Shown in pieces: positions 1 to 14,988 of a DNA stretch of 64,000 nucleotides. The notes beneath the pieces were generated by a model. It was not told the origin of the DNA. It searched no databases and saw only the letters and a program-made list of their open reading frames with translations. The stretch lies in assembly GCF_041886205.1 (NCBI RefSeq), contig NZ_CP169029.1; one strand, 5' to 3'. Both the position numbers and the translations under genes were made by a program. Each line of letters opens with the position of its first letter. Positions within the stretch are counted from its first letter, which is position 1. This DNA comes from Escherichia coli. Its GTDB lineage: Bacteria > Pseudomonadota > Gammaproteobacteria > Enterobacterales > Enterobacteriaceae.

Positions 1-674
1 GCACCCGAATTAACGTTAAGCTGACGGAAAAAGACGGCGAAGTGACCGACTTCAACTTCTCGGGTTTTGAAGTCACCCCCGCCGACTGGGAACGCTTTGT
101 GACTGATTCTCTGAGCTGGCTCGGTCAGTTCGATATGGTCTGTGTCAGCGGAAGCTTACCGTCAGGCGTCAGCCCGGAAGCGTTCACCGACTGGATGACT
201 CGCCTGCGTAGTCAGTGTCCTTGCATTATCTTTGATAGTAGCCGTGAAGCGTTAGTAGCAGGTTTGAAAGCGGCACCGTGGCTGGTGAAACCTAACCGCC
301 GCGAGCTGGAAATCTGGGCAGGCCGTAAACTGCCTGAAATGAAAGATGTGATTGAAGCTGCGCATGCGCTGCGTGAACAAGGTATTGCGCATGTCGTTAT
401 TTCACTGGGTGCCGAAGGCGCGCTTTGGGTTAATGCCTCCGGCGAATGGATCGCCAAACCACCGTCAGTCGATGTCGTAAGCACCGTTGGCGCAGGGGAT
501 TCTATGGTTGGTGGCCTGATTTATGGCTTGCTGATGCGTGAATCCAGTGAACACACACTGCGTCTGGCGACAGCTGTTGCAGCCCTGGCGGTAAGTCAAA
601 GCAATGTGGGTATTACCGATCGTCCGCAGTTGGCCGCAATGATGGCGCGCGTCGACTTACAACCTTTTAACTGA
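1..674 (+). CDS. fruK: 1-phosphofructokinase, 3' portion; the gene starts upstream of the window
   Basis: Reading frame is open from base 3 to the stop at 672-674 (…TRINVKLTEKDGEVTDFNF…); the ORF-track start at 42 is an internal GTG. PfkB-type C-terminus (GAGDSMVGG). fruA follows directly, as in the fruBKA operon. Confidence 0.9.
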   Translation, partial: TRINVKLTEKDGEVTDFNFSGFEVTPADWERFVTDSLSWLGQFDMVCVSGSLPSGVSPEAFTDWMTRLRSQCPCIIFDSSREALVAGLKAAPWLVKPNRRELEIWAGRKLPEMKDVIEAAHALREQGIAHVVISLGAEGALWVNASGEWIAKPPSVDVVSTVGAGDSMVGGLIYGLLMRESSEHTLRLATAVAALAVSQSNVGITDRPQLAAMMARVDLQPFN

Positions 675-690
675 CAGCAGGAGAGGCATA

Positions 691-2382
691 ATGAAAACGC
701 TGCTGATTATTGACGCTAATCTCGGTCAGGCACGCGCCTATATGGCGAAGACCCTGCTGGGCGCGGCGGCGCGAAAAGCAAAACTGGAAATCATCGACAA
801 TCCGAACGACGCAGAAATGGCGATTGTTCTCGGTGATTCCATCCCGAATGACAGCGCGCTGAACGGTAAAAATGTCTGGCTGGGCGATATTTCCCGGGCA
901 GTTGCGCACCCTGAGCTGTTCCTGAGTGAAGCCAAAGGCCATGCGAAACCTTACACTGCGCCGGTCGCTGCGACAGCACCGGTTGCCGCCAGCGGTCCGA
1001 AACGCGTAGTTGCGGTGACTGCTTGCCCGACTGGCGTAGCACACACCTTTATGGCGGCTGAAGCCATTGAAACCGAAGCGAAAAAACGTGGCTGGTGGGT
1101 GAAAGTTGAAACCCGTGGTTCTGTTGGTGCGGGTAATGCAATCACCCCCGAAGAAGTAGCCGCAGCGGATCTGGTGATTGTGGCGGCAGATATCGAAGTG
1201 GATCTGGCGAAATTTGCTGGTAAACCGATGTATCGTACCTCTACCGGTCTGGCGCTGAAGAAAACCGCGCAGGAACTGGATAAAGCGGTTGCTGAAGCAA
1301 CGCCGTATGAACCGGCGGGCAAAGCTCAAACGGCGACCTCTGAAGGTAAGAAAGAGAGTGCAGGCGCATACCGTCACTTGCTGACGGGCGTCTCTTACAT
1401 GCTGCCGATGGTCGTTGCAGGTGGTCTGTGTATCGCGCTTTCTTTTGCTTTTGGTATCGAAGCGTTTAAAGAGCCGGGTACGTTGGCAGCGGCGCTGATG
1501 CAGATTGGTGGTGGTTCAGCCTTTGCGCTGATGGTGCCGGTACTGGCAGGTTACATTGCCTTCTCCATTGCCGATCGTCCGGGTCTCACGCCGGGTCTGA
1601 TTGGCGGTATGCTGGCGGTCAGCACCGGTTCTGGCTTCATTGGCGGTATTATTGCGGGCTTCCTGGCTGGTTACATTGCGAAGTTAATCAGTACGCAACT
1701 GAAACTGCCACAGAGTATGGAGGCGCTGAAACCAATCCTGATCATTCCGCTAATTTCCAGTCTGGTGGTCGGTCTGGCGATGATCTACCTGATCGGTAAA
1801 CCGGTTGCTGGCATTCTCGAAGGGCTGACTCACTGGCTGCAGACCATGGGGACTGCGAATGCGGTTCTGCTGGGGGCGATCCTCGGTGGCATGATGTGTA
1901 CTGACATGGGCGGTCCGGTAAACAAAGCAGCGTACGCATTCGGTGTGGGTCTGCTGAGTACTCAAACCTATGGCCCGATGGCGGCGATTATGGCGGCAGG
2001 TATGGTGCCACCGCTGGCAATGGGTCTGGCAACAATGGTGGCGCGTCGCAAATTCGACAAAGCGCAGCAGGAAGGTGGCAAAGCCGCTCTGGTATTGGGA
2101 CTGTGCTTCATTTCGGAAGGTGCAATTCCGTTTGCTGCTCGTGATCCGATGCGTGTGCTGCCGTGCTGTATCGTGGGTGGTGCGCTGACTGGCGCAATCT
2201 CAATGGCGATTGGTGCGAAACTGATGGCACCACACGGTGGTCTGTTTGTTCTGCTGATCCCTGGCGCTATTACGCCGGTACTGGGTTACCTGGTAGCAAT
2301 TATTGCCGGTACGCTGGTGGCGGGTTTGGCCTATGCCTTCCTGAAACGTCCGGAAGTGGACGCAGTAGCGAAAGCAGCGTAA
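691..2382 (+). CDS. fruA: PTS fructose-specific EIIB'BC component
   Basis: 563-aa ORF starting MKTLLIIDANLGQARAYMAK with a polytopic membrane C-domain; sits directly downstream of fruK. Confidence 0.95.
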   Translation: MKTLLIIDANLGQARAYMAKTLLGAAARKAKLEIIDNPNDAEMAIVLGDSIPNDSALNGKNVWLGDISRAVAHPELFLSEAKGHAKPYTAPVAATAPVAASGPKRVVAVTACPTGVAHTFMAAEAIETEAKKRGWWVKVETRGSVGAGNAITPEEVAAADLVIVAADIEVDLAKFAGKPMYRTSTGLALKKTAQELDKAVAEATPYEPAGKAQTATSEGKKESAGAYRHLLTGVSYMLPMVVAGGLCIALSFAFGIEAFKEPGTLAAALMQIGGGSAFALMVPVLAGYIAFSIADRPGLTPGLIGGMLAVSTGSGFIGGIIAGFLAGYIAKLISTQLKLPQSMEALKPILIIPLISSLVVGLAMIYLIGKPVAGILEGLTHWLQTMGTANAVLLGAILGGMMCTDMGGPVNKAAYAFGVGLLSTQTYGPMAAIMAAGMVPPLAMGLATMVARRKFDKAQQEGGKAALVLGLCFISEGAIPFAARDPMRVLPCCIVGGALTGAISMAIGAKLMAPHGGLFVLLIPGAITPVLGYLVAIIAGTLVAGLAYAFLKRPEVDAVAKAA

Positions 2383-2395
2383 TAAAAGGTGTGTT

Positions 2396-2420
2396 ACAGG
2401 GCAGAAATTTCCTGCCCTGT
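2396..2420 (+). terminator. 9-bp perfect stem-loop just after the fruA stop; no T-tract follows
   Basis: acagggcag-aaatttc-ctgccctgt read directly from the sequence. Confidence 0.35.
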
Positions 2421-2539
2421 ATCATTGGATGAGCGCAAAGGGAATGACCAGCTTGTGAATGTAATTTTATGAATTTAAATGGTTTTATCTTTCAGTAGAA
2501 ACTTGAAACGTTCATCAAACACTAAGGTTATTTCCTCAA

Positions 2540-2568
2540 GGGCAGATTATTTTCTGCCCTTTTTTATT
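2540..2568 (+). terminator. Rho-independent terminator candidate downstream of fruA
   Basis: gggcaga-ttattt-tctgccc stem-loop followed by tttttatt. Confidence 0.6.
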
Positions 2569-2805
2569 GTTCCTGTTCTGTGCATCCCGTCACAAATTCC
2601 TCGCTTTTGTAATTCAGGCATTTAATCGCATTTTGTGAGCCTGCTCAAATCTGCCCATTTAGCCTCTCTGGCGGTAATTTACTTTACGTAAAACATGCAT
2701 ACTATGAGCACATGTTTAAATATGAACACATGTTTAAACCGTCTTTGCAGTATCTATATTCTTGTGGATTGACAGGGTTGGTAATTTTTTACCAGAGGAC
2801 GTGCT

Positions 2806-3747
2806 ATGCGCGAAAAGGATTATGTCGTCATTATAGGCTCGGCGAATATTGATGTCGCCGGATATTCACATGAATCATTAAATTATGCGGATTCAAATCC
2901 AGGTAAAATAAAATTTACGCCTGGTGGAGTCGGGCGCAATATTGCACAAAACCTGGCGTTGCTGGGGAACAAAGCCTGGCTACTGAGCGCCGTAGGCAGT
3001 GACTTTTATGGTCAATCGCTGCTAACGCAAACCAATCAATCTGGCGTTTATGTCGATAAATGCCTGATTGTGCCGGGAGAAAATACGTCTAGTTATTTAT
3101 CATTACTCGATAATACCGGTGAAATGCTGGTTGCTATAAATGACATGAATATTAGCAACGCTATTACAGCTGAATATCTCGCACAGCACCGTGAATTTAT
3201 TCAGAGGGCAAAGGTCATTGTCGCGGACTGTAATATCAGTGAAGAGGCACTGGCATGGATTCTGGATAATGCCGCCAACGTACCCGTATTTGTCGATCCG
3301 GTTTCCGCATGGAAATGTGTCAAAGTGCGCGACCGTCTAAATCAGATCCACACTCTCAAGCCAAACCGCCTTGAAGCGGAAACCCTGAGTGGGATTGCGC
3401 TGTCAGGGCGTGACGATGTGGCAAAAGTTGCTGCCTGGTTCCATCAACATGGCCTGAACCGACTGGTATTGAGCATGGGCGGCGACGGCGTTTATTACAG
3501 CGATATCAGCGGTGAAAATGGCTGGTCTGCGCCGATCAAAACCAATGTTATTAATGTTACCGGAGCGGGCGATGCCATGATGGCGGGACTTGCTTCGTGT
3601 TGGGTAGACGGAATGCCGTTTGCCGAATCTGTTCGTTTCGCACAGGGATGTTCGTCAATGGCGCTCTCCTGTGAATACACCAATAACCCCGATTTATCGA
3701 TTGCCAACGTTATATCGTTAGTGGAGAACGCAGAATGTCTGAATTAA
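2806..3747 (+). CDS. psuK: Pseudouridine kinase (PfkB family)
   Basis: 313-aa ORF starting MREKDYVVIIGSANIDV, with ribokinase-like GG and GAGD motifs; overlaps psuG by 13 nt. Confidence 0.9.
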   Translation: MREKDYVVIIGSANIDVAGYSHESLNYADSNPGKIKFTPGGVGRNIAQNLALLGNKAWLLSAVGSDFYGQSLLTQTNQSGVYVDKCLIVPGENTSSYLSLLDNTGEMLVAINDMNISNAITAEYLAQHREFIQRAKVIVADCNISEEALAWILDNAANVPVFVDPVSAWKCVKVRDRLNQIHTLKPNRLEAETLSGIALSGRDDVAKVAAWFHQHGLNRLVLSMGGDGVYYSDISGENGWSAPIKTNVINVTGAGDAMMAGLASCWVDGMPFAESVRFAQGCSSMALSCEYTNNPDLSIANVISLVENAECLN

Positions 3748-4673
3748 AAATTTCCCCTGAATTATTACAAATTTCCCCGGAAGTGCAGGACGCTTTAAAA
3801 AACAAAAAACCGGTTGTGGCGCTGGAATCGACCATTATTTCTCACGGGATGCCGTTCCCACAAAATGCCCAGACCGCAATTGAAGTAGAAGAAACTATTC
3901 GTAAACAGGGCGCTGTACCTGCCACTATCGCCATTATTGGCGGCGTGATGAAAGTGGGTTTAAGCAAAGAAGAAATTGAATTACTGGGTCGTGAAGGGCA
4001 TAACGTGACCAAAGTTAGTCGTCGCGATTTACCTTTTGTTGTTGCCGCCGGAAAAAATGGCGCAACCACTGTGGCTTCAACGATGATTATTGCGGCGCTT
4101 GCCGGAATTAAAGTATTTGCCACCGGGGGAATTGGTGGTGTGTATCGCGGGGCGGAACATACCTTCGATATTTCTGCCGATTTGCAAGAACTGGCAAATA
4201 CTAATGTCACCGTTGTTTGTGCCGGGGCGAAATCTATTCTCGATTTAGGATTAACCACTGAGTATTTAGAAACCTTCGGTGTGCCGTTAATTGGCTATCA
4301 GACTAAAGCGCTGCCTGCGTTTTTCTGCCGTACCAGCTCGTTTGACGTCAGCATTCGTCTCGACAGCGCCAGTGAAATTGCCCGTGCAATGGCGGTGAAA
4401 TGGCAAAGCGGGCTGAACGGTGGCCTCGTGGTAGCGAACCCGATCCCGGAACAGTTTGCGATGCCGGAGGAATCTATCAATGCAGCCATAGATCAAGCCG
4501 TCGCCGAAGCCGAAGAGCAGGGCGTTATTGGTAAAGAAAGTACACCGTTCCTGCTGGCGCGCGTTGCTGAACTGACCGGCGGTGACAGCCTGAAATCCAA
4601 TATCCAGCTGGTGTTCAACAACGCCATTCTGGCGAGTGAAATTGCCAAAGAATACCAGCGTCTCGCGGGTTAA
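3735..4673 (+). CDS. psuG: Pseudouridine-5'-phosphate glycosidase
   Basis: 312-aa ORF starting MSELKISPELLQISPEVQDALKN; translationally coupled to psuK. Confidence 0.9.
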   Translation: MSELKISPELLQISPEVQDALKNKKPVVALESTIISHGMPFPQNAQTAIEVEETIRKQGAVPATIAIIGGVMKVGLSKEEIELLGREGHNVTKVSRRDLPFVVAAGKNGATTVASTMIIAALAGIKVFATGGIGGVYRGAEHTFDISADLQELANTNVTVVCAGAKSILDLGLTTEYLETFGVPLIGYQTKALPAFFCRTSSFDVSIRLDSASEIARAMAVKWQSGLNGGLVVANPIPEQFAMPEESINAAIDQAVAEAEEQGVIGKESTPFLLARVAELTGGDSLKSNIQLVFNNAILASEIAKEYQRLAG

Positions 4674-4766
4674 TTTCTGACGGGCAGAAAGCCGTCGCCC
4701 GTACTCATCAAACATACCAAAACCTGGCGCTGACGCCGGGTTTACTGGCATGAAGGGAAAATCATT

Positions 4767-6017
4767 ATGGACATAATGAGAAGTGTTGTGGGGATGGTGG
4801 TGTTACTGGCAATAGCATTTCTGTTGTCAGTGAATAAAAAGAGCATCAGTTTGCGTACGGTTGGAGCCGCACTGCTGCTGCAAATCGCTATTGGTGGCAT
4901 CATGCTCTACTTCCCACCGGGAAAATGGGCAGTAGAACAGGCGGCATTAGGCGTTCATAAAGTGATGTCTTACAGTGATGCCGGTAGCGCCTTCATTTTT
5001 GGTTCGCTGGTTGGGCCGAAAATGGATGTCCTGTTTGACGGTGCGGGTTTTATCTTCGTCTTTCGCGTACTTCCGGCGATTATTTTCGTTACTGCGCTCA
5101 TCAGTCTGCTGTACTACATTGGCGTGATGGGGCTGCTGATTCGCATCCTTGGCAGCATTTTCCAGAAAGCTCTTAACATCAGCAAAATCGAATCTTTTGT
5201 CGCAGTCACAACTATTTTCCTCGGGCAAAATGAGATCCCGGCGATCGTTAAACCGTTTATCGATCGCATGAATCGCAACGAGTTGTTTACCGCAATTTGT
5301 AGCGGGATGGCGTCCATTGCTGGTTCGATGATGATTGGTTATGCCGGAATGGGCGTACCAATTGACTACCTGTTAGCGGCATCGCTGATGGCGATCCCAG
5401 GTGGTATTTTGTTTGCACGTATTCTTAGCCCGGCCACCGAGCCTTCGCAGGTCACATTTGAAAATCTGTCGTTCAGCGAAACGCCGCCAAAAAGCTTTAT
5501 CGAAGCGGCGGCGAGCGGTGCGATGACCGGGCTGAAAATCGCCGCTGGTGTAGCGACGGTGGTAATGGCGTTTGTCGCAATTATTGCGCTGATCAACGGC
5601 ATTATCGGCGGAATTGGTGGCTGGTTTGGTTTCGCCAATGCCTCTCTGGAAAGTATTTTTGGCTATGTGCTGGCACCGCTGGCGTGGATCATGGGTGTGG
5701 ACTGGAGTGATGCCAATCTTGCGGGTAGCCTGATTGGGCAGAAACTGGCGATTAACGAATTCGTCGCTTACCTGAGTTTCTCCCCATACCTGCAAACGGG
5801 CGGCACGCTGGAAGTGAAAACCATTGCGATTATCTCCTTTGCGCTTTGTGGTTTTGCTAACTTTGGTTCTATCGGTGTTGTCGTTGGCGCATTTTCGGCT
5901 ATTTCGCCAAAACGTGCTCCAGAAATCGCCCAGCTTGGTTTACGGGCGCTGGCAGCAGCAACGCTTTCCAACCTGATGAGTGCGACTATTGCCGGGTTCT
6001 TTATTGGTCTGGCGTAA
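4767..6017 (+). CDS. psuT: NupC-family nucleoside transporter (YeiM/PsuT)
   Basis: 416-aa polytopic membrane ORF; close paralog of the nupX ORF at 7957-9207. Confidence 0.9.
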   Translation: MDIMRSVVGMVVLLAIAFLLSVNKKSISLRTVGAALLLQIAIGGIMLYFPPGKWAVEQAALGVHKVMSYSDAGSAFIFGSLVGPKMDVLFDGAGFIFVFRVLPAIIFVTALISLLYYIGVMGLLIRILGSIFQKALNISKIESFVAVTTIFLGQNEIPAIVKPFIDRMNRNELFTAICSGMASIAGSMMIGYAGMGVPIDYLLAASLMAIPGGILFARILSPATEPSQVTFENLSFSETPPKSFIEAAASGAMTGLKIAAGVATVVMAFVAIIALINGIIGGIGGWFGFANASLESIFGYVLAPLAWIMGVDWSDANLAGSLIGQKLAINEFVAYLSFSPYLQTGGTLEVKTIAIISFALCGFANFGSIGVVVGAFSAISPKRAPEIAQLGLRALAAATLSNLMSATIAGFFIGLA

Positions 6018-6027
6018 TGCTCGATTT

Positions 6028-6066
6028 GTAGACCGGATAAAACGTATTAAGCGTTGCATCCGGCAA
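6028..6066. repeat. REP (palindromic unit) element
   Basis: gtagaccggataaaacg…gcgttgcatccggca; matches the ccggat / atccgg inverted core of E. coli REP. Confidence 0.6.
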
Positions 6067-6087
6067 TCGCGCTATTGCAAATAATTT

Positions 6088-6747
6088 TTACTGCATCATC
6101 CCGGAGAATTTATTCTCCGGGTCCATCTCCAGCGCCAGTCCTGACAACTGCTTTCTGTTTTTAATGAGATACCCTTTCTTGCTTTTAGTTAATAAACCGT
6201 CGTGAATGAATTGCGCGAGAACATATAAAAGATGTCGATAAGAAACGCCTAAATACTCTGCCGCTTGCGTATGCTTTTCGTGATAAAGATCACCTTCCTG
6301 CGAGAGTAATATAAAAGCTGCCAGGCGATTAACTAACGGAAATGATTGATTCTGAGTTAAAGAAACAATATTACGATAATTTTTATGACTTAAGGTGACG
6401 CAGAGTTTTCGTAAAAATAGCGTGTCGTTTAATAACAGCGGGCGGTAATGTTTCATAGAGAGCGCAAGGCACCAACACTCTTCAATAGCCTGCACCGCAC
6501 GCGGTTCATGGTCTTTGTCGATTAACTCAATCTCACCAATAAAACAGGGGGCGGCAAAGAAATCGATCAGCGACACGCGACCATTAGCAAGCGTGGCGTA
6601 AAGCCTGGCGCGGCCTCGCGTCAGATAAAACAGCCAGGACGGCTGTTGCCCTTCCTGCACAATGTAGTCACGCGCTAAAAAATGAAACAGCCGCGTATCG
6701 GCTGAAACATCCGTTAAAAAGCAATCCTTAAACGCGGATTCACTCAT
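6088..6747 (-). CDS. yeiL: CRP/FNR-family transcriptional regulator YeiL
   Basis: ORF has a cNMP-binding-like N-domain and C-terminal HTH. Start placed at the internal Met ([10 protein letters not shown]…) to give 219 aa; the ORF track extends to 6786. Confidence 0.8.
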
Positions 6748-6800
6748 CAATTGCTGCTTAAGATCATTATTGTGGATTTCTTTCACGATGTTTATCCGCT

Positions 6801-6814
6801 ATGAGATTTCTCAT
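6801..6814. promoter_or_regulatory. 14-bp palindrome ATGAG-N4-CTCAT upstream of yeiL; candidate CRP/FNR-family (FNR or YeiL) site
   Basis: atgagatttctcat read directly; TGA-N6-TCA core geometry is typical of CRP/FNR-family sites. Confidence 0.4.
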
Positions 6815-6915
6815 ATTTAGCATACGTACGCGGTTGGTAAGATTCAATCATCGGCCCGGTCGAATTTTCTTTGCTGTAGAAAAAATAACGCAACTGGAAA
6901 CAGAGGAAATAAACA

Positions 6916-7857
6916 ATGGAAAAGAGAAAAATTATTCTGGATTGTGATCCGGGTCATGATGATGCTATTGCAATGATGATGGCAGCGAAACATCCGGCAA
7001 TAGATTTATTAGGCATCACTATTGTAGCGGGTAATCAGACGCTTGATAAAACATTAATTAATGGCCTGAATGTTTGCCAGAAACTGGAGATTAATGTTCC
7101 GGTTTATGCGGGGATGCCGCAACCCATTATGCGTAAACAAATCGTTGCCGATAATATTCACGGTGAAACCGGACTGGATGGCCCGGTATTCGAGCCGCTG
7201 ACCTGCCAGGCAGAAAGTACCCACGCGGTGAAATACATCATTGATACCCTGATGGCAAGCGATGGCGATATCACTCTGGTGCCGGTTGGTCCGCTTTCAA
7301 ATATCGCGGTGGCAATGCGTATGCAACCCGCGATCCTGCCCAAAATCCGTGAAATTGTGCTAATGGGCGGCGCTTACGGTACAGGCAACTTCACGCCATC
7401 TGCCGAGTTCAACATCTTTGCTGATCCGGAAGCAGCCCGCGTGGTGTTCACCTCCGGCGTTCCATTAGTGATGATGGGCCTCGATCTCACCAACCAGACC
7501 GTTTGCACCCCGGACGTGATTGCACGGATGGAAAGGGCAGGCGGCCCTGCCGGAGAGCTGTTCAGCGACATCATGAACTTCACTCTCAAAACGCAGTTCG
7601 AAAACTACGGCCTGGCTGGCGGCCCGGTGCACGACGCCACCTGCATCGGTTATCTGATTAACCCTGATGGCATTAAAACCCAGGAGATGTACGTCGAAGT
7701 GGACGTCAACAGTGGCCCTTGCTATGGGCGTACCGTCTGCGACGAGCTGGGCGTTCTTGGCAAGCCCGCTAATACCAAAGTCGGCATCACTATTGATACC
7801 GACTGGTTCTGGGGCTTAGTCGAAGAGTGCGTGCGCGGCTACATCAAAACCCATTAA
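6916..7857 (+). CDS. rihB: Pyrimidine-specific ribonucleoside hydrolase RihB
   Basis: 313-aa ORF with the N-terminal DCDPGHDDA aspartate-cluster motif of IU-nucleoside hydrolases. Confidence 0.9.
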
Positions 7858-7956
7858 GTGTTGATAACAAGCCGGGTCAGTATCGCAAGATCCAAGCCCG
7901 GCTATTTCTGATGGGCAGAAAGCCGTCGCCCAATATGACATGAAGAGATAATAACT

Positions 7957-9207
7957 ATGGATGTCATGAGAAGTGTTCTGGGAATGGTGGTATTGCTGAC
8001 GATTGCGTTTTTGCTGTCAGTAAACAAGAAGAAGATCAGCCTGCGTACCGTTGGCGCGGCGTTAGTGTTACAGGTCGTGATTGGCGGGATTATGCTTTGG
8101 TTACCGCCAGGGCGTTGGGTCGCTGAAAAAGTCGCTTTTGGCGTGCATAAAGTGATGGCGTACAGCGACGCGGGTAGCGCATTTATCTTCGGTTCGCTGG
8201 TCGGGCCGAAAATGGACACGCTGTTTGATGGTGCAGGATTTATCTTTGGTTTCAGGGTATTACCGGCAATTATCTTCGTCACTGCACTGGTGAGTATTCT
8301 CTACTACATCGGTGTGATGGGGATTTTAATTCGCATTCTCGGCGGTATATTCCAGAAAGCATTAAATATCAGCAAGATTGAGTCATTCGTCGCGGTCACC
8401 ACCATTTTCCTCGGGCAAAACGAAATTCCGGCGATCGTCAAACCCTTTATCGATCGTCTGAATCGCAATGAATTATTTACAGCGATTTGTAGTGGCATGG
8501 CCTCGATTGCTGGTTCGACAATGATTGGTTACGCCGCCCTGGGCGTACCTGTGGAATATTTGCTGGCGGCATCGTTAATGGCGATCCCAGGCGGGATCTT
8601 GTTTGCCCGCCTGTTAAGCCCGGCTACGGAATCTTCGCAGGTTTCCTTTAATAACCTCTCTTTCACCGAAACACCGCCAAAAAGCATTATTGAAGCCGCT
8701 GCGACAGGGGCAATGACCGGGCTGAAAATCGCCGCCGGTGTAGCGACAGTTGTTATGGCATTTGTCGCCATCATTGCGTTAATTAATGGTATTATCGGCG
8801 GCGTTGGCGGCTGGTTTGGTTTTGCACATGCCTCGCTGGAGTCCATTTTAGGTTACCTGTTGGCCCCATTGGCGTGGGTGATGGGGGGTGACTGGAGTGA
8901 TGCAAATCTTGCCGGGAGTTTGATTGGGCAGAAGCTGGCGATCAATGAATTTGTCGCTTATCTCAATTTCTCGCCATATCTGCAAACGGGTGGCACTCTG
9001 GATGCTAAAACCGTGGCGATTATTTCTTTCGCGTTGTGCGGTTTCGCTAACTTTGGTTCTATCGGGGTGGTGGTGGGGGCGTTTTCTGCGGTTGCGCCAC
9101 ACCGTGCGCCGGAAATCGCCCAACTTGGTTTACGCGCGCTGGCGGCGGCGACACTTTCTAACCTGATGAGTGCTACTATTGCAGGATTCTTTATTGGTTT
9201 AGCGTAG
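7957..9207 (+). CDS. nupX: NupC-family nucleoside transporter NupX
   Basis: 416-aa ORF, about 85-90% identical to PsuT by eye across the whole length. Confidence 0.9.
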   Translation: MDVMRSVLGMVVLLTIAFLLSVNKKKISLRTVGAALVLQVVIGGIMLWLPPGRWVAEKVAFGVHKVMAYSDAGSAFIFGSLVGPKMDTLFDGAGFIFGFRVLPAIIFVTALVSILYYIGVMGILIRILGGIFQKALNISKIESFVAVTTIFLGQNEIPAIVKPFIDRLNRNELFTAICSGMASIAGSTMIGYAALGVPVEYLLAASLMAIPGGILFARLLSPATESSQVSFNNLSFTETPPKSIIEAAATGAMTGLKIAAGVATVVMAFVAIIALINGIIGGVGGWFGFAHASLESILGYLLAPLAWVMGGDWSDANLAGSLIGQKLAINEFVAYLNFSPYLQTGGTLDAKTVAIISFALCGFANFGSIGVVVGAFSAVAPHRAPEIAQLGLRALAAATLSNLMSATIAGFFIGLA

Positions 9208-9218
9208 TGCGCAATTTA

Positions 9219-9257
9219 TGAGCCGGATAAGATGCGGTCAAGCGTCGAATCCGGCAA
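9219..9257. repeat. REP element
   Basis: tgagccggataagatgcggtcaagcgtcgaatccggcaa. Confidence 0.55.
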
Positions 9258-9262
9258 CATTG

Positions 9263-10351
9263 TTACACCATTGGCACTAATGAAAGCGCGTTATCGGCAG
9301 ACAGGGTAGGGTTGTTTAAGCTGCCGCTGGCGCGCGAAATTGCCGCGCAGGCTACCGCAAAACGGGCGCTGTCGCGGAAACTGTATCCTTCAAGAAAGCT
9401 ATATACCAGGCCCGCCATAAAACCATCGTCAGCACCAAAACTGTCTACTGTCGTATGCGCTGGCGCGGTCAGCAAAAATTGTTCTCCATCCTTTTCGCTG
9501 CAATAAACTGACTCATCGGGCAAATAAACAAACAGTTGCTGAACACCTTGCTGATGCAATGCATTCACTGCGGCATTACGGTCAGCATCGCTGGTGATCG
9601 CCTGTCCCCATAAAATTTCCAGCTCCGGTAAAGTGGGTTTCAGGGTGTGAATATGCGCCAGCCAGTGTTTGATTTTGCCCGCTTTGAATTCTGAAACGGT
9701 ATCGACAAACACCGGGATTTCATCAGCGAGGGTAAAGACCCATTCCAGCGCCTCGGCTGTCAGGTTGCAATCAGCCAGTACCACGCCCGCATGACGAAGT
9801 AAATCGCGCGACCCGTTCAGTAGTTGCGGTGTCAACTGTTCCAGCAGATGGGTATCGTTAATCGCCAGCACGGTTTGATCGTCTCGATTGGCAATTGCCA
9901 GATACGTCGATGTGCTTTGACCATGCAAACGAACGCAGCCGGAGACATTCACGCCGGCACGGCGCGTTTCTTCCAGGAGCATTTCGCCATAAAAGTCATC
10001 GCCAATCACTGAAAGCAAATGGACGTCACGGCCTAACAGCGCCAGATTGTGGGCGATGTTGCGTCCCACGCCGCCCGCCGAGCAATGAATTGTACCGGGA
10101 TGAGAAGCCGCTTGCGGGTAACGGATATCCGCCATCCCGCGAATATCCATATTGATTGTCCCCACCACTACGCAGTATTCCTGCTCGGTGAGAATGTAAC
10201 CTTTGCCTTTAATCCGCCCTTTGCGCATTAAATCCATAATATGCGCCGCAACGCGCGAACGACTGATTTGCAGCATGTCCGCAATTTCGTTCTGCTGAAT
10301 CAGCGGGTTACGCCGTAAAATTGCAAGGATCTCCTTTTCCCGGTTATTCAT
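9263..10351 (-). CDS. yeiI: HTH-fused PfkB-family sugar/nucleoside kinase YeiI
   Basis: 362-aa ORF: N-terminal HTH (ILAILRRNPLIQQNEIADMLQISRSRVAAHI) followed by a ribokinase-like domain homologous to PsuK. Confidence 0.85.
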   Translation of the reverse strand: MNNREKEILAILRRNPLIQQNEIADMLQISRSRVAAHIMDLMRKGRIKGKGYILTEQEYCVVVGTINMDIRGMADIRYPQAASHPGTIHCSAGGVGRNIAHNLALLGRDVHLLSVIGDDFYGEMLLEETRRAGVNVSGCVRLHGQSTSTYLAIANRDDQTVLAINDTHLLEQLTPQLLNGSRDLLRHAGVVLADCNLTAEALEWVFTLADEIPVFVDTVSEFKAGKIKHWLAHIHTLKPTLPELEILWGQAITSDADRNAAVNALHQQGVQQLFVYLPDESVYCSEKDGEQFLLTAPAHTTVDSFGADDGFMAGLVYSFLEGYSFRDSARFAVACAAISRASGSLNNPTLSADNALSLVPMV

Positions 10352-10353
10352 CT

Positions 10354-11211
10354 TCAGGCTACCGCTTTTTCAGTTTGTTGCGCTTTCAGCCAGGCGATCT
10401 CTTCTGCCCAGATATCCGGGTTGATGGTTTCAAGGATCAGCGGAATGCCGTCGAAACGGTCGTCTTGCATGATCCAGCGGAACGCATCATGACCGATATT
10501 GCCTTCACCGAGGCTATGATGGCGGTCAACGCGGCTGCCAAAGGTACTTTTCGCATCGTTAAGGTGCATCCCGCGCAGATACTTAAAGCCGACAATACGG
10601 GCAAAATCAGCGAACGTTTTTTCGCATTCGGCTGGAGTACGCAAATCATACCCGGCAGCGAAAGCATGGCAGGTATCAATGCAGACGCCGACGCGGGATT
10701 TATCTTCCACGCCGTCGATAATCGCTGCGAGATGTTCGAATTTAAACCCTAAGTTACTGCCCTGACCGGCGGTGTTTTCAATCACCGCGGTGACACCTTG
10801 AGTTTTATCCAGCGCAATGTTGATGGATTCGGCAATACGCGCAAGGCAATCCTCTTCTGAAATCTGCATCAGATGGCTGCCAGGGTGGAAGTTGAGCAAA
10901 GAAAGCCCCAGCTGTTCGCAACGCTGCATTTCATCTATAAAGGCATCGCGCGATTTTTCCAGAGCTTCAGCAACCGGATGTCCGAGGTTAATCAGATAAC
11001 TGTCGTGGGGAAGAATTTGCGCCGATGTGTAGTGATATTTTTCACAGGCGGCTTTGAATTCATCGATGGTTTGCGTCGTGAGCGGTGCGGCACGCCACTG
11101 ACGTTGGTTTTTGGTGAACAAGGCAAACGCGGTTGCGTCGATTTCGGCGGCGCGAATTGCGGCATTTGCCAGACCGCCAGCAGCACTAACGTGCGCTCCA
11201 ATGTATTTCAT
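10354..11211 (-). CDS. nfo: Endonuclease IV
   Basis: 285-aa ORF starting [39 protein letters not shown]. Confidence 0.95.
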
Positions 11212-11284
11212 GCGAGGACTCCTGTTAAACCCGCTGGAGGAAAACGGTAATGATAGCGGGTTAACAGGAGCAAGATGTAGTGGT

Positions 11285-12334
11285 TTATGCGATGACGCTT
11301 TGAATCACATAGTTAATCGCACCACCACCAACAATCAGCCAGGCAAACAGTACCAGTGCCATCAGCAGAGGTTTCGCCCCGGCTTTTTTCAGCGCGCTGA
11401 CGTGAGTGGTCAGACCCAGCGCCGCCATCGCCATTGCCAGCAGGAAGGTATCCAGCGTTACCAGCATGTTCACCACGCTCTGCGGTAACAGGTGGAACGA
11501 GTTAAAGATGGCAACGACGATGAACAAGATGGCAAACCACGGAATAGTGATTTTGCTTTTCTCGCCGCTGTTCGCCCCAGACAGCTGTTTAACACGCGCC
11601 GCCAGCAGGATGAGGAACGGAGCCAGCATCATCACGCGCAGCATTTTGGAAATAACTGCTGCGTTTTCCGCATCCGGGCTGATGGCATGACCTGCCGCCA
11701 CCACCTGCGCCACTTCGTGCACAGTAGAACCAATGTAGATACCGAAAGTTTCCGGACTAAACCATTGAGACATCAGCGGATATATCGCCGGGTAGAGGAA
11801 AATCGCGACGGTCCCGAAGATAACAACGGTTGCAACAGCCACGGTTACTTTACTGGCTTCCGCTTTCACTACCGGCTCAGTCGCCAGTACCGCGGCAGCA
11901 CCACAGATACTGCTACCGGCACCGATCAACCAGCTGGTGTGCTTATCCAGACCAAACACTTTCTGCCCCAGGAAGCAAGCCAGCAGGAAGGTACTGGACA
12001 GCGTCAACACGTCAATGATGATCCCACTGATACCGACATCGGCAATTTGCGAGAACGTCAGACGGAAGCCATAAAGAATGATACCCAGACGTAATAAATA
12101 TTGCTTGGCAAACAGCACACCACCGTCACAGCTTTTCCAGATGTGCGGATAGATGGTGTTGCCTAAAACCATCCCCAACAAGATTGCGAGGGTGAGGGCA
12201 CTAAACCCGGCACCCGCAACCGCGGGAATGGAACCACCCCACAGGGCGACCCCGGTGATAACTGCACTCAGGGCTAACCCCGGAATAAAATGCCACAGTG
12301 TACGATGTTGTTTCTGTAAGGTGATATTCGTCAT
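11285..12334 (-). CDS. yeiH: UPF0324 inner membrane protein YeiH
   Basis: 349-aa polytopic membrane ORF, divergent from the LysR regulator yeiE. Confidence 0.85.
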
Positions 12335-12400
12335 AACCCTCTCCTTTATCCGGGCATAAGGTTACGACTAACTGGTTTAAAAATAAAATTGATTATATAT

Positions 12401-12419
12401 TTATAATTAATCTTTATAA
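12401..12419. promoter_or_regulatory. Candidate LysR-type box in the yeiH-yeiE divergent region
   Basis: ttataa-N7-ttataa dyad (T-N11-A type) read directly between the divergent genes. Confidence 0.3.
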
Positions 12420-12432
12420 GTGGTAAGCGACT

Positions 12433-13314
12433 ATGCACATCACCCTCCGGCAGTTGGAAGTTTTTGCAGAAGTATTGAAAAGTGGATCAACCACCCAGGC
12501 GTCGGTGATGCTGGCGTTGTCGCAATCAGCAGTGAGCGCAGCCTTGACCGACCTGGAAGGGCAGCTTGGCGTTCAACTGTTTGATCGCGTGGGGAAAAGA
12601 CTGGTAGTTAATGAACACGGTCGGCTGCTCTATCCGCGTGCGTTGGCACTGCTTGAACAGGCGGTTGAAATCGAACAACTGTTTCGCGAAGACAACGGCG
12701 CGATTCGTATCTATGCCAGTAGTACCATCGGTAACTACATTCTGCCTGCAGTTATTGCCCGTTATCGCCATGATTATCCGCAGTTGCCGATTGAACTTAG
12801 CGTTGGGAACAGCCAGGACGTGATGCAAGCGGTGCTGGATTTCCGCGTTGATATTGGCTTTATTGAAGGACCGTGCCACAGCACTGAAATCATTTCTGAA
12901 CCGTGGCTGGAAGACGAGCTGGTGGTTTTCGCCGCGCCGACTTCGCCGTTGGCCCGTGGTCCGGTCACCTTAGAGCAGCTGGCCGCTGCGCCGTGGATCC
13001 TGCGTGAACGCGGTTCCGGCACGCGGGAGATTGTCGATTATCTATTGCTGTCACATTTACCGAAGTTTGAGATGGCGATGGAATTAGGTAACTCCGAGGC
13101 AATCAAACATGCGGTGCGTCATGGGTTGGGAATTAGTTGCCTGTCGCGACGGGTGATTGAAGATCAATTGCAGGCAGGCACATTAAGTGAAGTTGCGGTC
13201 CCTCTGCCGCGCCTGATGCGTACGTTGTGGCGTATACATCATCGGCAAAAACACCTTTCCAACGCGCTACGGCGCTTTCTGGACTATTGCGATCCCGCGA
13301 ATGTACCGCGTTAA
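12433..13314 (+). CDS. yeiE: LysR-family transcriptional regulator YeiE
   Basis: 293-aa ORF with N-terminal LysR HTH ([36 protein letters not shown]). Confidence 0.9.
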
Positions 13315-13518
13315 GTTGCTGTACAAGAACATGCTGGTGCTGTGTCGATTTCGTGACGCAGCGCCTTCAGCATGCATTCGCCAGAAAAGAGATTGGCTGC
13401 TTTACTTATAATCCCTGGGCGATCATGAAGGTGTCTTATAACCGTGTATTTCTGCCGGAAGGATTGCCAATCGTCTGCTACAATCGCGCCTCATTTTTTA
13501 GATGGATAGCATTTTTGT

Positions 13519-14988
13519 ATGGTTTCCGAAACTAAAACCACAGAAGCGCCGGGCTTACGCCGTGAATTAAAGGCGCGTCACCTGACGATGATTGCCATTG
13601 GCGGTTCCATCGGTACAGGTCTTTTTGTTGCCTCTGGCGCAACGATTTCTCAGGCAGGTCCGGGCGGGGCATTGCTCTCGTATATGTTGATTGGCCTGAT
13701 GGTTTACTTCCTGATGACCAGTCTCGGTGAACTGGCTGCATATATGCCGGTTTCCGGTTCGTTTGCCACTTACGGTCAGAACTATGTTGAAGAAGGCTTT
13801 GGCTTCGCGCTGGGCTGGAACTACTGGTACAACTGGGCGGTGACTATCGCCGTTGACCTGGTTGCAGCTCAGCTGGTCATGAGCTGGTGGTTCCCGGATA
13901 CACCGGGCTGGATCTGGAGTGCGTTGTTCCTCGGCGTTATCTTCCTGCTGAACTACATCTCAGTTCGTGGCTTTGGTGAAGCGGAATACTGGTTCTCACT
14001 GATCAAAGTCACGACAGTTATTGTCTTTATCATCGTTGGCGTGCTGATGATTATCGGTATCTTCAAAGGCGCGCAGCCTGCGGGCTGGAGCAACTGGACA
14101 ATCGGCGAAGCGCCGTTTGCTGGTGGTTTTGCGGCGATGATCGGCGTAGCTATGATTGTCGGCTTCTCTTTCCAGGGAACCGAGCTGATCGGTATTGCTG
14201 CAGGCGAGTCCGAAGATCCGGCGAAAAACATTCCACGCGCGGTACGTCAGGTGTTCTGGCGAATCCTGTTGTTCTATGTGTTCGCGATCCTGATTATCAG
14301 CCTCATTATTCCGTACACCGATCCGAGCCTGCTGCGTAACGATGTTAAAGACATCAGCGTTAGTCCGTTCACCCTGGTGTTCCAGCACGCGGGTCTGCTC
14401 TCTGCGGCGGCGGTGATGAACGCAGTTATTCTGACGGCGGTGCTGTCAGCCGGTAACTCCGGTATGTATGCGTCTACTCGTATGCTGTACACCCTGGCGT
14501 GTGACGGTAAAGCGCCGCGCATTTTCGCTAAACTGTCGCGTGGTGGCGTGCCGCGTAATGCGCTGTATGCGACGACGGTGATTGCCGGTCTGTGCTTCCT
14601 GACCTCCATGTTTGGCAACCAGACGGTATACCTGTGGCTGCTGAATACCTCCGGGATGACGGGTTTTATCGCCTGGCTGGGGATTGCCATTAGCCACTAT
14701 CGCTTCCGTCGCGGTTACGTATTGCAGGGACACGACATTAACGATCTGCCGTACCGTTCAGGTTTCTTCCCATTGGGGCCGATCTTCGCATTCATTCTGT
14801 GTCTGATTATCACTTTGGGCCAGAACTACGAAGCGTTCCTGAAAGATACTATTGACTGGGGCGGCGTAGCGGCAACGTATATTGGTATCCCGCTGTTCCT
14901 GATTATTTGGTTCGGCTACAAGCTGATTAAAGGAACTCACTTCGTACGCTACAGCGAAATGAAGTTCCCGCAGAACGATAAGAAATAA
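13519..14988 (+). CDS. lysP: Lysine-specific permease (APC family)
   Basis: 489-aa ORF starting MVSETKTTEAPGLRRELKARHLTMIAIGGSIGTGLFVASG. Confidence 0.95.
   Translation: MVSETKTTEAPGLRRELKARHLTMIAIGGSIGTGLFVASGATISQAGPGGALLSYMLIGLMVYFLMTSLGELAAYMPVSGSFATYGQNYVEEGFGFALGWNYWYNWAVTIAVDLVAAQLVMSWWFPDTPGWIWSALFLGVIFLLNYISVRGFGEAEYWFSLIKVTTVIVFIIVGVLMIIGIFKGAQPAGWSNWTIGEAPFAGGFAAMIGVAMIVGFSFQGTELIGIAAGESEDPAKNIPRAVRQVFWRILLFYVFAILIISLIIPYTDPSLLRNDVKDISVSPFTLVFQHAGLLSAAAVMNAVILTAVLSAGNSGMYASTRMLYTLACDGKAPRIFAKLSRGGVPRNALYATTVIAGLCFLTSMFGNQTVYLWLLNTSGMTGFIAWLGIAISHYRFRRGYVLQGHDINDLPYRSGFFPLGPIFAFILCLIITLGQNYEAFLKDTIDWGGVAATYIGIPLFLIIWFGYKLIKGTHFVRYSEMKFPQNDKK

Follow-up and report, generated by a model that had tools for sequence, protein, structure and literature searches.

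YeiI of Escherichia coli, a winged helix-turn-helix protein with a PfkB-type domain, as a candidate pseudouridine-responsive regulator of psuK-psuG-psuT

The gene yeiI of Escherichia coli was analysed within a stretch of 64,000 nucleotides of DNA (assembly GCF_041886205.1, contig NZ_CP169029.1), hereafter called the window. It is an open reading frame (ORF) on the minus strand, at positions 9263–10351, with an ATG start and 362 amino acids, and is labelled in RefSeq as 'yeiI: sugar kinase'. The window is E. coli chromosome, with 100% identity to several sequenced strains over positions 9000–10700, and yeiI was found in 5420 of 5426 complete E. coli genomes. The gene order is fruK', fruA, psuK, psuG and psuT (plus strand), yeiL (minus), rihB and nupX (plus), yeiI, nfo and yeiH (minus), and yeiE, lysP and cirA (plus); the coordinates of the features treated here are collected in Table 1. 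YeiI was described as uncharacterised in papers of 2022 and 2025 (PMC9061257, PMC12506659), in agreement with an earlier reading of this DNA made from the sequence (the original prediction), which held that its substrate was not established.

YeiI has two domains. The Pfam family HTH_24 (PF13412, of the Lrp/AsnC/MarR-like clan), a helix-turn-helix (HTH), matches residues 1–48 (E = 1.2e-10, 41.2 bits against a cut-off of 21.9), and PfkB (PF00294) matches residues 58–348 (E = 1.1e-68, 232 bits against a cut-off of 25.8). The 'sugar kinase' equivalog of NCBIfam (NF007416) covers the complete protein (residues 1–362 of 362) with 813.8 bits, above its cut-off of 561, while the score with the PsuK equivalog (NF007355) is 258.1 bits, under the cut-off of 540. 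Residues 54–359 are 40% identical to the PsuK encoded in the window (E = 2e-77), and the nearest relatives in the PDB are 7vkp and 7vtd, both of E. coli pseudouridine kinase; the combination of HTH and PfkB was absent among the solved structures searched. The AlphaFold2 (AF2) model of YeiI, with a predicted local distance difference test (pLDDT) value of 87.5, has N-terminal helices at residues 3–14, 20–27 and 31–43, followed by the strands of a beta wing at about residues 47–54. The predicted recognition helix corresponds to residues 31–43 (RSRVAAHIMDLMR) and the wing closes with a near-invariant GKGYIL, while the PfkB part superposes on the E. coli pseudouridine kinase (EcPUKI) with template modelling (TM) scores of 0.94–0.96. 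By fold and by profile YeiI belongs to the PfkB superfamily, and the domain search confirmed the claim, made in the original prediction, of an N-terminal HTH fused to a PfkB domain related to PsuK.

To place YeiI among its relatives, 80 species-level genome loci were compared, the loci collected in all amounting to 1.76 Mb, and residue tables were made for 25 YeiI, 22 HTH-less PsuK, 52 PsuK proteins that carry an HTH of their own (HTH-PsuK) and 11 orphan paralogues; PsuK and HTH-PsuK together were 74. The homologue search showed that the HTH plus PfkB architecture is spread across Gammaproteobacteria, and the alignment splits it into two groups. The first group, HTH-PsuK, is present in Serratia, Yersinia, Photorhabdus, Xenorhabdus, Pasteurella, Shewanella, Aliivibrio and others and keeps all the catalytic motifs of PsuK; its gene is the first of psuK-psuG(-psuT) in Serratia, Shewanella and Pasteurella, and 52 such loci were collected overall. 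In most other Gammaproteobacteria sampled, the homologous HTH is fused to the pseudouridine kinase itself. The second group, YeiI proper, is confined to the Enterobacteriaceae and a few relatives, coexists with a separate PsuK, and occurs only where that PsuK has no HTH.

The operon psuK-psuG-psuT (psuKGT) is the conserved neighbour of yeiI, in convergent orientation. The layout in the Enterobacteriaceae, seen in about 20 species, is yeiE< yeiH> nfo> yeiI> <psuT <psuG <psuK <fruA, and yeiI is directly convergent with psuKGT also in Salmonella, Affinibrenneria and [Enterobacter] lignolyticus. Across the 25 loci tabulated, yeiI does not form an operon with psuG, as psuK does, but is placed on the opposite strand and convergent with psuKGT. 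Among YeiI orthologues the HTH is 83–91% identical and the recognition helix 87–100%, compared with 53–84% for the kinase domain; no part of the protein is better conserved than the HTH, and therefore a role as regulator is credible. Between YeiI and HTH-PsuK the identity is 57–74% in the HTH and 39–49% in the kinase domain. The two groups share a conserved recognition helix.

The nucleoside pocket is retained in YeiI. Twelve of the 13 pseudouridine contacts are kept, namely Asn14, Asp16, Ser30', Gly41, Val42, Asn45, Tyr97, Asn143, Val166, Ser167, Lys170 and Asp256 in EcPsuK numbering (N67, D69, S83, G94, V95, N98, Y150, N196, V219, S220, K223 and D309 in E. coli YeiI). The changed contact is Met114, which is Thr in 23 of the 25 YeiI, and Asn31 is His in Escherichia. 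The equivalents of Ser/Thr30', Asn143 and Lys170, which are the hallmark base-recognition residues of pseudouridine kinase (PMC9061257), are present in 25 of 25 YeiI proteins (S83, N196 and K223). The G93-G94 dipeptide is invariant and the catalytic D309 is found in 23 of 25 (one Glu, one gap).

The motifs of the adenosine triphosphate (ATP) site are changed in the same proteins. The NXXE motif reads T240-L-P-E243, Asn187 being replaced by Thr, Ser or Ala in 25 of 25, and GAGD reads GADD, with Asp in place of Gly255 in 24 of 24 (D308 in E. coli). The GXXG motif, a conserved small ATP-binding loop of pseudouridine kinase (PMC9247573), is changed from SMGGDG to YLPDES or CLEDES, and neither G225 nor G228 is ever Gly in the 25 YeiI (P278..S281 in E. 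coli). None of the 74 PsuK and HTH-PsuK proteins departs from the canonical residues N187, G255, G225 and G228. The substitutions of YeiI, mostly acidic, add negative charge at phosphate-binding places, which together with the replaced motifs suggests binding of pseudouridine without canonical use of ATP.

YeiI is thus probably, as judged from these residues, a pseudokinase sensor that binds pseudouridine without phosphorylating it, with catalysis left to PsuK. A psuK mutant is unable to use pseudouridine, according to PMC12506659, which cites Preumont 2008, so YeiI does not replace PsuK in vivo. Because of its equivalog score and its GXXG and NXXE/GAGD motifs, YeiI should not be filed as a pseudouridine kinase. 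The original prediction had left it between binding and phosphorylating a nucleoside; with the GXXG glycines, the NXXE Asn and the GAGD Gly lost in every orthologue, phosphorylation is doubtful and binding alone is the more likely mode. In EcPUKI the small domain closes in response to pseudouridine, and not to ATP, by way of Ser30 from the partner subunit (PMC9061257), a movement that would offer a ready-made allosteric signal for an N-terminal HTH.

A candidate operator was found at psuK. A paired palindrome resembling AAACAnnTGTTT lies upstream of the gene, the starts of the two units being 18 bp apart (19 bp in Shewanella and Vibrionaceae), and the best pair in the 64-kb window, at 2706–2735, is the one at this position. 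Unlike the DNA on either side of it, the operator is conserved across genera. Where an HTH-less PsuK and YeiI occur together, the pair is situated about 100 bp before the psuK ATG, and in the HTH-psuK of Photorhabdus, Gilliamella, Pasteurella, Shewanella, Vibrionaceae and Algicola it is situated 30–60 bp before the ATG. A pair with at most 3 mismatches was present in 57% of the 74 psuK upstream regions, versus 0.03% of 2960 dinucleotide-preserving shuffles, and all 54 pairs at this threshold in the 1.76 Mb of collected loci sit upstream of psuK or HTH-psuK.

With exceptions, the operator accompanies HTH-PfkB proteins in Enterobacterales, Pasteurellales, Orbales, Alteromonadales and Vibrionales. 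Four HTH-less psuK-psuG operons with no YeiI gene within 8 kb (Aeromonas jandaei, a Pasteurellaceae metagenome-assembled genome (MAG), a Bartonella sp. and one further contig) gave background scores, with 6, 6, 8 and 8 mismatches. Neither a pair nor a single site with at most 1 mismatch was detected in the yeiL-rihB (6787–6915) and rihB-nupX (7858–7956) regions or upstream of nfo.

Only the paired arrangement and the placement across species carry weight for this motif. The single 12-mer AAACANNTGTTT, with one mismatch allowed, has 4 matches in the window against 2.65 expected, which is not significant, and the second-best pair, at 12655–12684, is located inside the yeiE coding sequence with 4 mismatches, at chance level for 64 kb. 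An additional conserved AAACA half-site was observed at 2691–2695, in the spacer between the psuK -35 and -10 hexamers and 15 nt before the first operator unit; in several Citrobacter loci it scores within a pair of 17-bp spacing. In the HTH-PsuK of an Oscillospiraceae MAG (L087) and of Aeromonas popoffii (L089), HIS replaces HIM in the recognition helix and the AAACAnnTGTTT pair is absent; in the former a palindrome, AAGCAtcTGCTT, stands in its place about 44 bp upstream. These differences may represent covariation of protein and operator, with two cases on record.

The upstream regions of psuK from 12 enterobacterial genera were aligned and conserved blocks were recognised within otherwise diverged DNA. 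Their order is a CRP-like site, TTTACT, TACTAT and then, directly, the two operator units. The operator array begins right after the -10 hexamer and therefore covers the predicted transcription start, spanning roughly -9 to +27 relative to it, a position that is typical of repressors. The predicted CRP-like site is at a distance consistent with class I activation.

Experimental evolution lends independent support to this placement of the psuK promoter. Between psuK and fruA, an A>C change at NC_000913.2 position 2257444 arose repeatedly, in many mice, and was described as a change in the psuK promoter that alters psuK expression; a psuKp A>C change was recurrent in long-term stationary phase as well (PMC7518454, PMC9509342). 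In the window, the mouse-gut change falls on position 2680. This is the third base of the -35 hexamer, which is converted from TTTACT into TTGACT, nearer to the consensus; the change of stationary phase probably maps to the same base. The offset between NC_000913.2 and NC_000913.3 used for the mapping, 1978 bp, was confirmed by four srlR mutations listed in the same table. A hairpin, TGGTAatttttTACCA (about 2779–2794), directly 5' of the psuK Shine-Dalgarno sequence, seemed compensatory by eye, other genera having paired changes in its two arms (TGGCA/TGCCA, AGC/GCT), and was discarded, as RNAalifold on 13 sequences gave no consensus structure.

Table 1. Position of the genes, domains and regulatory features in the window.
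Feature	Position	Strand	Basis or remarks
CRP-like site, TGTGAgcctgcTCAAA	2634..2649	+	Conserved block; centre ~70-71 bp upstream of the predicted start; named CRP from resemblance to the consensus only
psuK core promoter (predicted)	2678..2705	+	-35 TTTACT 2678-2683, 16-nt spacer, -10 TACTAT 2700-2705; phylogenetic footprint
Candidate YeiI operator	2703..2738	+	Tandem 18-bp units TATGAGCACATGTTTAAA and TATGAACACATGTTTAAA; core palindromes 2706-2717 and 2724-2735
psuK (2806-3747), psuG (3735-4673), psuT (4767-6017)	2806..6017	+	Proposed target operon; adjoins yeiI in all YeiI-bearing genera having psuKGT
yeiL (6088-6786, -), rihB (6916-7857, +), nupX (7957-9207, +)	6088..9207		Block inserted between psuT and yeiI in a few lineages
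REP-like inverted repeat in the nupX/yeiI gap	9222..9255	.	Arms 9222-9235 and 9242-9255, 79% complementary
yeiI coding sequence (362 amino acids)	9263..10351	-	ORF; RefSeq annotation; NCBIfam NF007416 equivalog, 813.8 bits
PfkB (ribokinase-like) domain, residues 58-348	9308..10180	-	Pfam; alignment; residue roles from PMC9247573 and PMC9061257
Winged HTH, residues 1-54	10190..10351	-	Pfam HTH_24; AF2 helices and beta wing; conservation
nfo (endonuclease IV)	10354..11211	-	Directly upstream of yeiI, same strand

On balance, and with moderate confidence, YeiI appears to be a pseudouridine-responsive and probably non-catalytic repressor of psuKGT. Its role as regulator of this operon is proposed because it is homologous to HTH-PsuK, because it occurs only beside an HTH-less PsuK, and because the paired site is kept at the psuK promoter. 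Coupled decay speaks for the same role: several changes in the pocket were seen in one YeiI only, that of Phytobacter sp. V91 (L009), the single locus that has lost psuKGT, and in Citrobacter koseri yeiI and psuKGT are fragmentary together. A YeiI dimer, or two dimers, formed through the beta-thumb of PfkB, would bind both AAACAnnTGTTT-like palindromes, which start right after the -10 hexamer, and would block transcription from the CRP-assisted psuK promoter. Pseudouridine would enter the retained pocket, with Ser83 supplied by the partner subunit, and closure of the small domain, as documented for EcPUKI, would reposition the two HTHs; these would release the DNA and psuKGT would be induced. 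The labour would be divided, PsuK catalysing and YeiI sensing, from an ancestral bifunctional kinase-regulator.

The sequences themselves contain a catalytic PsuK and a DNA-binding-type YeiI with a degenerate ATP site; from them we infer a history, held somewhat more tentatively than the regulatory role and at a little under even chances. According to it, PsuK lost its HTH and YeiI its ATP site, both from an ancestral bifunctional HTH-kinase, and YeiI would be a PfkB-fold pseudokinase turned transcription factor and a bacterial counterpart of the GAL1/GAL3 pair. In the neighbour-joining (NJ) tree of the kinase domains the YeiI clade has a long stem and was recovered in 100 of 100 bootstraps. 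HTH-less PsuK proteins are nested among the HTH-PsuK of Enterobacterales and Pasteurellales, and therefore the HTH would have been lost from PsuK more than once. YeiI is, as far as the tree indicates, either a fast-evolving or an older lineage; a split in the enterobacterial ancestor with later acceleration, an earlier split and a transfer may fit the tree alike. In Aeromonas jandaei (L092) an HTH-less psuK-psuG-psuT was observed beside a phage-type integrase, and its PsuK nests in the enterobacterial PsuK clade, a position that points to horizontal transfer without yeiI and without operator.

Several observations weigh against the proposed role and history. The connection of YeiI with the operator is drawn from co-occurrence, and this has exceptions: in the HTH-psuK of Serratia, Yersinia, Hafnia and Xenorhabdus a single palindrome is located about 256–287 bp upstream, with no pair near the start, and in A. 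popoffii and the Oscillospiraceae MAG the motif is missing. The gene yeiI is convergent with its proposed target and not divergent from it, and in E. coli it lies 6.5 kb from psuK, behind the DNA-repair gene nfo. In Phytobacter sp. V91 the yeiI ORF is intact although psuKGT is missing. The catalytic Asp309 and Lys238 are retained in YeiI, and GXXG varies in some eukaryotic PsuK homologues (PMC9247573), so YeiI may have kept some catalytic activity. In the NJ tree, YeiI as recent sister of the PsuK of Enterobacteriaceae was obtained in 0 of 100 bootstraps, with long-branch effects possible. Finally, the mouse-gut and stationary-phase mutation tables consulted list no yeiI knock-outs and, at this system, only the recurrent psuK -35 up-mutation, while knock-outs of other repressors (srlR, frlR, dgoR and glpR) are common there (PMC7518454, PMC9509342). 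The missing knock-outs are compatible with a simple repressor only in a gut that already contains the inducer, where the strength of the promoter would limit expression.

The alternative that survives best, though we consider it unlikely, is that YeiI is bifunctional, regulating psuKGT through the same operator and acting also as a kinase for pseudouridine or a close analogue, with a modified phosphate/Mg site. YeiI has conserved Asp309, which is the catalytic base, together with Lys238, the GG dipeptide and Asp217. The replacing residues T240, D308 and S281 are themselves conserved, which suggests a selected new state and not decay; the GADD sequence, we presume, still fits PROSITE PfkB signature 2. 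Against these residues stand three separate ATP/Mg elements changed in all 25 orthologues, with acidic residues at the phosphate sites, and the canonical motifs of all 74 PsuK and HTH-PsuK proteins. The variation of GXXG in eukaryotic homologues (PMC9247573) and the precedent of RbkR, an active kinase-regulator (PMC5397151), speak for a bifunctional YeiI, and the failure of the psuK mutant on pseudouridine (PMC12506659) speaks against it.

It is improbable that YeiI is mainly a kinase for another nucleoside, for instance a methylated pseudouridine or another C-nucleoside, with an autoregulatory or vestigial HTH. The annotation as 'sugar kinase' and the replacements of Met114 by Thr (23 of 25) and, in Escherichia, of Asn31 by His, which alter the environment on the base side, would agree with such a function; the invariant equivalents of Ser30, Asn143 and Lys170, the loss of the ATP-binding motifs, the HTH as best-conserved region, and the lack of an operator-like site upstream of nfo or yeiI disagree with it.

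Slightly less probable still is that the paired palindrome is bound by another transcription factor, YeiI having an unrelated DNA or RNA target or none. The operator was assigned to YeiI from sequence, and the single 12-mer is not enriched in the window (4 versus 2.65 expected). Nevertheless, the motif follows the presence of HTH-PfkB over five orders and is absent from the four operons without one, no gene for another regulator is a constant neighbour, and YeiI shares its conserved recognition helix with HTH-PsuK.

The least probable alternative, that of the original prediction, in which YeiI senses a nucleoside and is positioned to control nupX and rihB, has in its favour that these genes are adjacent in E. 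coli and related in theme (NupX being a duplicate of PsuT, and RihB a pyrimidine nucleoside hydrolase), but it is probably wrong, since the adjacency is limited to 4 of 25 YeiI loci, yeiI is convergent with nupX, the divergent CRP/FNR-type yeiL occupies the promoter side of rihB, and neither an operator pair nor a site with at most 1 mismatch was found in 6787–6915 or 7858–7956, the candidate operator being located only at the psuK promoter. Its broader idea of a one-component sensor-regulator holds for the architecture, an HTH with a ligand domain in which the HTH is most conserved, and probably fails for the targets.

The characteristics that differentiate YeiI from known systems are as follows. 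E. coli PsuK (PUKI, YeiC; 7vkp, 7vtd and 7vva) shares with YeiI the PfkB fold (TM 0.94–0.96, 38–40% identity), pseudouridine contacts that include Ser30, Asn143 and Lys170, the catalytic Asp, the equivalent of Lys185 and a dimer-forming beta-thumb, but it has no 54-residue winged HTH, it keeps GXXG, the NXXE Asn and the GAGD Gly, and its gene is in an operon with psuG. The annotation 'PfkB family carbohydrate kinase' or 'pseudouridine kinase' is given to the HTH-PsuK of Serratia, Yersinia, Photorhabdus, Pasteurella, Gilliamella, Shewanella and Vibrionaceae, which share with YeiI the same two domains, an HTH of 57–74% identity, the ISRSxVAxHIMxL recognition helix, the GKGYIL wing and the same upstream operator motif. 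Unlike YeiI, they keep all catalytic and ATP motifs and are encoded by the sole psuK gene of the operon; therefore, they are presumably bifunctional enzyme-regulators. YeiI is encoded by a separate gene beside an HTH-less PsuK and has degenerate ATP-site motifs.

Other proteins with an N-terminal HTH and an enzyme-type ligand domain are the ROK repressors Mlc and NagC, BirA and NadR. In Mlc and NagC a sugar-kinase-like domain senses without catalysing. The folds of these proteins are ASKHA/ROK, biotin ligase and nicotinamide mononucleotide adenylyltransferase, and not PfkB; to our knowledge no PfkB-fold transcription factor has been characterised. Yeast GAL1 and GAL3 correspond to a bifunctional kinase-sensor of some lineages that is replaced in others by two paralogues, one catalytic and one a non-catalytic sensor with a retained ligand pocket. 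Unlike YeiI and PsuK, they are eukaryotic, and Gal3 signals by protein-protein interaction and not by DNA binding. By its logic, the closest precedent is RbkR, an archaeal winged-HTH riboflavin kinase and regulator whose operators were first predicted by comparative genomics (PMC5397151) and which, as proposed for YeiI, combines a winged HTH with a small-molecule kinase domain and controls the genes of its own pathway. RbkR differs from YeiI in its unrelated riboflavin kinase fold, dependent on cytidine triphosphate (CTP), in being catalytically active, in the modulation of DNA binding by CTP and the product flavin mononucleotide, in the opposite position of the HTH in the protein and in its archaeal origin. 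In the literature searched no link of a pseudouridine kinase to an HTH, of YeiI to a role as transcription factor or of PfkB to a characterised transcription factor was found, subscription-only literature and regulon databases being outside the search.

If the proposed role is true, YeiI would be the first known case of a regulator that senses free pseudouridine, which RNA turnover produces, and it would explain the control of pseudouridine catabolism, whose promoter repeatedly adapts in the mouse gut and in long-term stationary phase. The PfkB fold would join the enzyme scaffolds recruited as sensor domains of transcription factors, and YeiI with its operator would be a candidate pseudouridine-responsive switch for strains that make pseudouridine for mRNA production. 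A concrete and testable function is proposed for a y-gene of nearly all E. coli, the habit of machine-learning predictions and annotations of naming YeiI a second pseudouridine kinase or a sugar kinase is corrected, and the bifunctional and split forms offer a clean contrast across Gammaproteobacteria.

With respect to the neighbouring genes, the yeiI ATG starts 2 nt past the stop codon of nfo on the same strand, so yeiI is, from this arrangement, probably co-transcribed with nfo. The nfo-yeiI junction is retained in about 20 Enterobacteriaceae loci. Scans for a separate yeiI promoter or terminator around 9150–11350 were no better than shuffles, and no known RNA families were found in positions 1–14000 of the window. 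On the other side, nupX is the immediate neighbour of yeiI, as the original prediction had it, but convergent, with a 55-bp gap between the two genes, and rihB, which had been placed beside yeiI as well, is one gene beyond.

The yeiL-rihB-nupX block, in which yeiL is a divergent gene for a CRP/FNR-type regulator sitting at the rihB promoter, was present in 4 of 25 YeiI loci including the window, all from E. coli, E. whittamii and Entomohabitans, and was missing from E. albertii and all other YeiI-bearing genera sampled. The adjacency of yeiI and nupX therefore results from an insertion specific to a few lineages. As NupX and PsuT share 88% identity, one gene of the block is a duplicate of psuT. 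A motif, TTTCTGA(C/T)GGGCAGAAAGCCGTCGCCC, is common to the short region 5' of nupX (7858–7956) and the psuG-psuT spacer (4674–4766), and therefore the duplication of psuT that gave nupX took in the spacer.

Signs of mobility and of decay were observed at some loci. In Salmonella enterica (L006, 8056–13315) psuK-psuG-psuT-yeiI is flanked by relB/parE toxin-antitoxin genes and transposases, which suggests that the four genes move together as an island. In Citrobacter koseri NCTC10786 (L029) yeiI, psuK, psuG and psuT give only fragmentary matches, and fruA also gives a partial match of lower identity, as if the whole region were decaying. Second HTH-PfkB paralogues with no psuG nearby are present in Xenorhabdus (L049, L051-L057, L073, L078, L081 and L097), about half of them changed at Tyr97, Asp164, Lys185 or Gly225. 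As proof of other regulons these orphans were considered uninformative, the one examined adjoining an IS605-family transposase and PirA/PirB-like toxin genes and having an altered C-terminus.

Within E. coli, yeiI occurs as two sharply distinct allele classes, one of at least 95% identity in 3362 genomes and one of about 81% DNA identity in 2060, with none between. When the window was compared with strain 30COLEC (L096), divergence was limited to two patches, within 2400–3900 and 9300–10300, namely the psuK promoter with psuK (47–80%) and yeiI (72–88%), the intervening 5.5 kb and both flanks being 95–100% identical. Co-adapted alleles of psuK and yeiI were considered and rejected: the alleles of the two genes differ in number (2060 versus no more than about 1210) and form a complex mosaic in the population, so the linkage is incomplete and none is claimed. 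A further structural variant is present in some E. coli genomes, such as those of O25:H4 strains, in which the interval from psuK to yeiI aligns as three separate pieces and, compared with 30COLEC, is shorter by about 1.1 kb.

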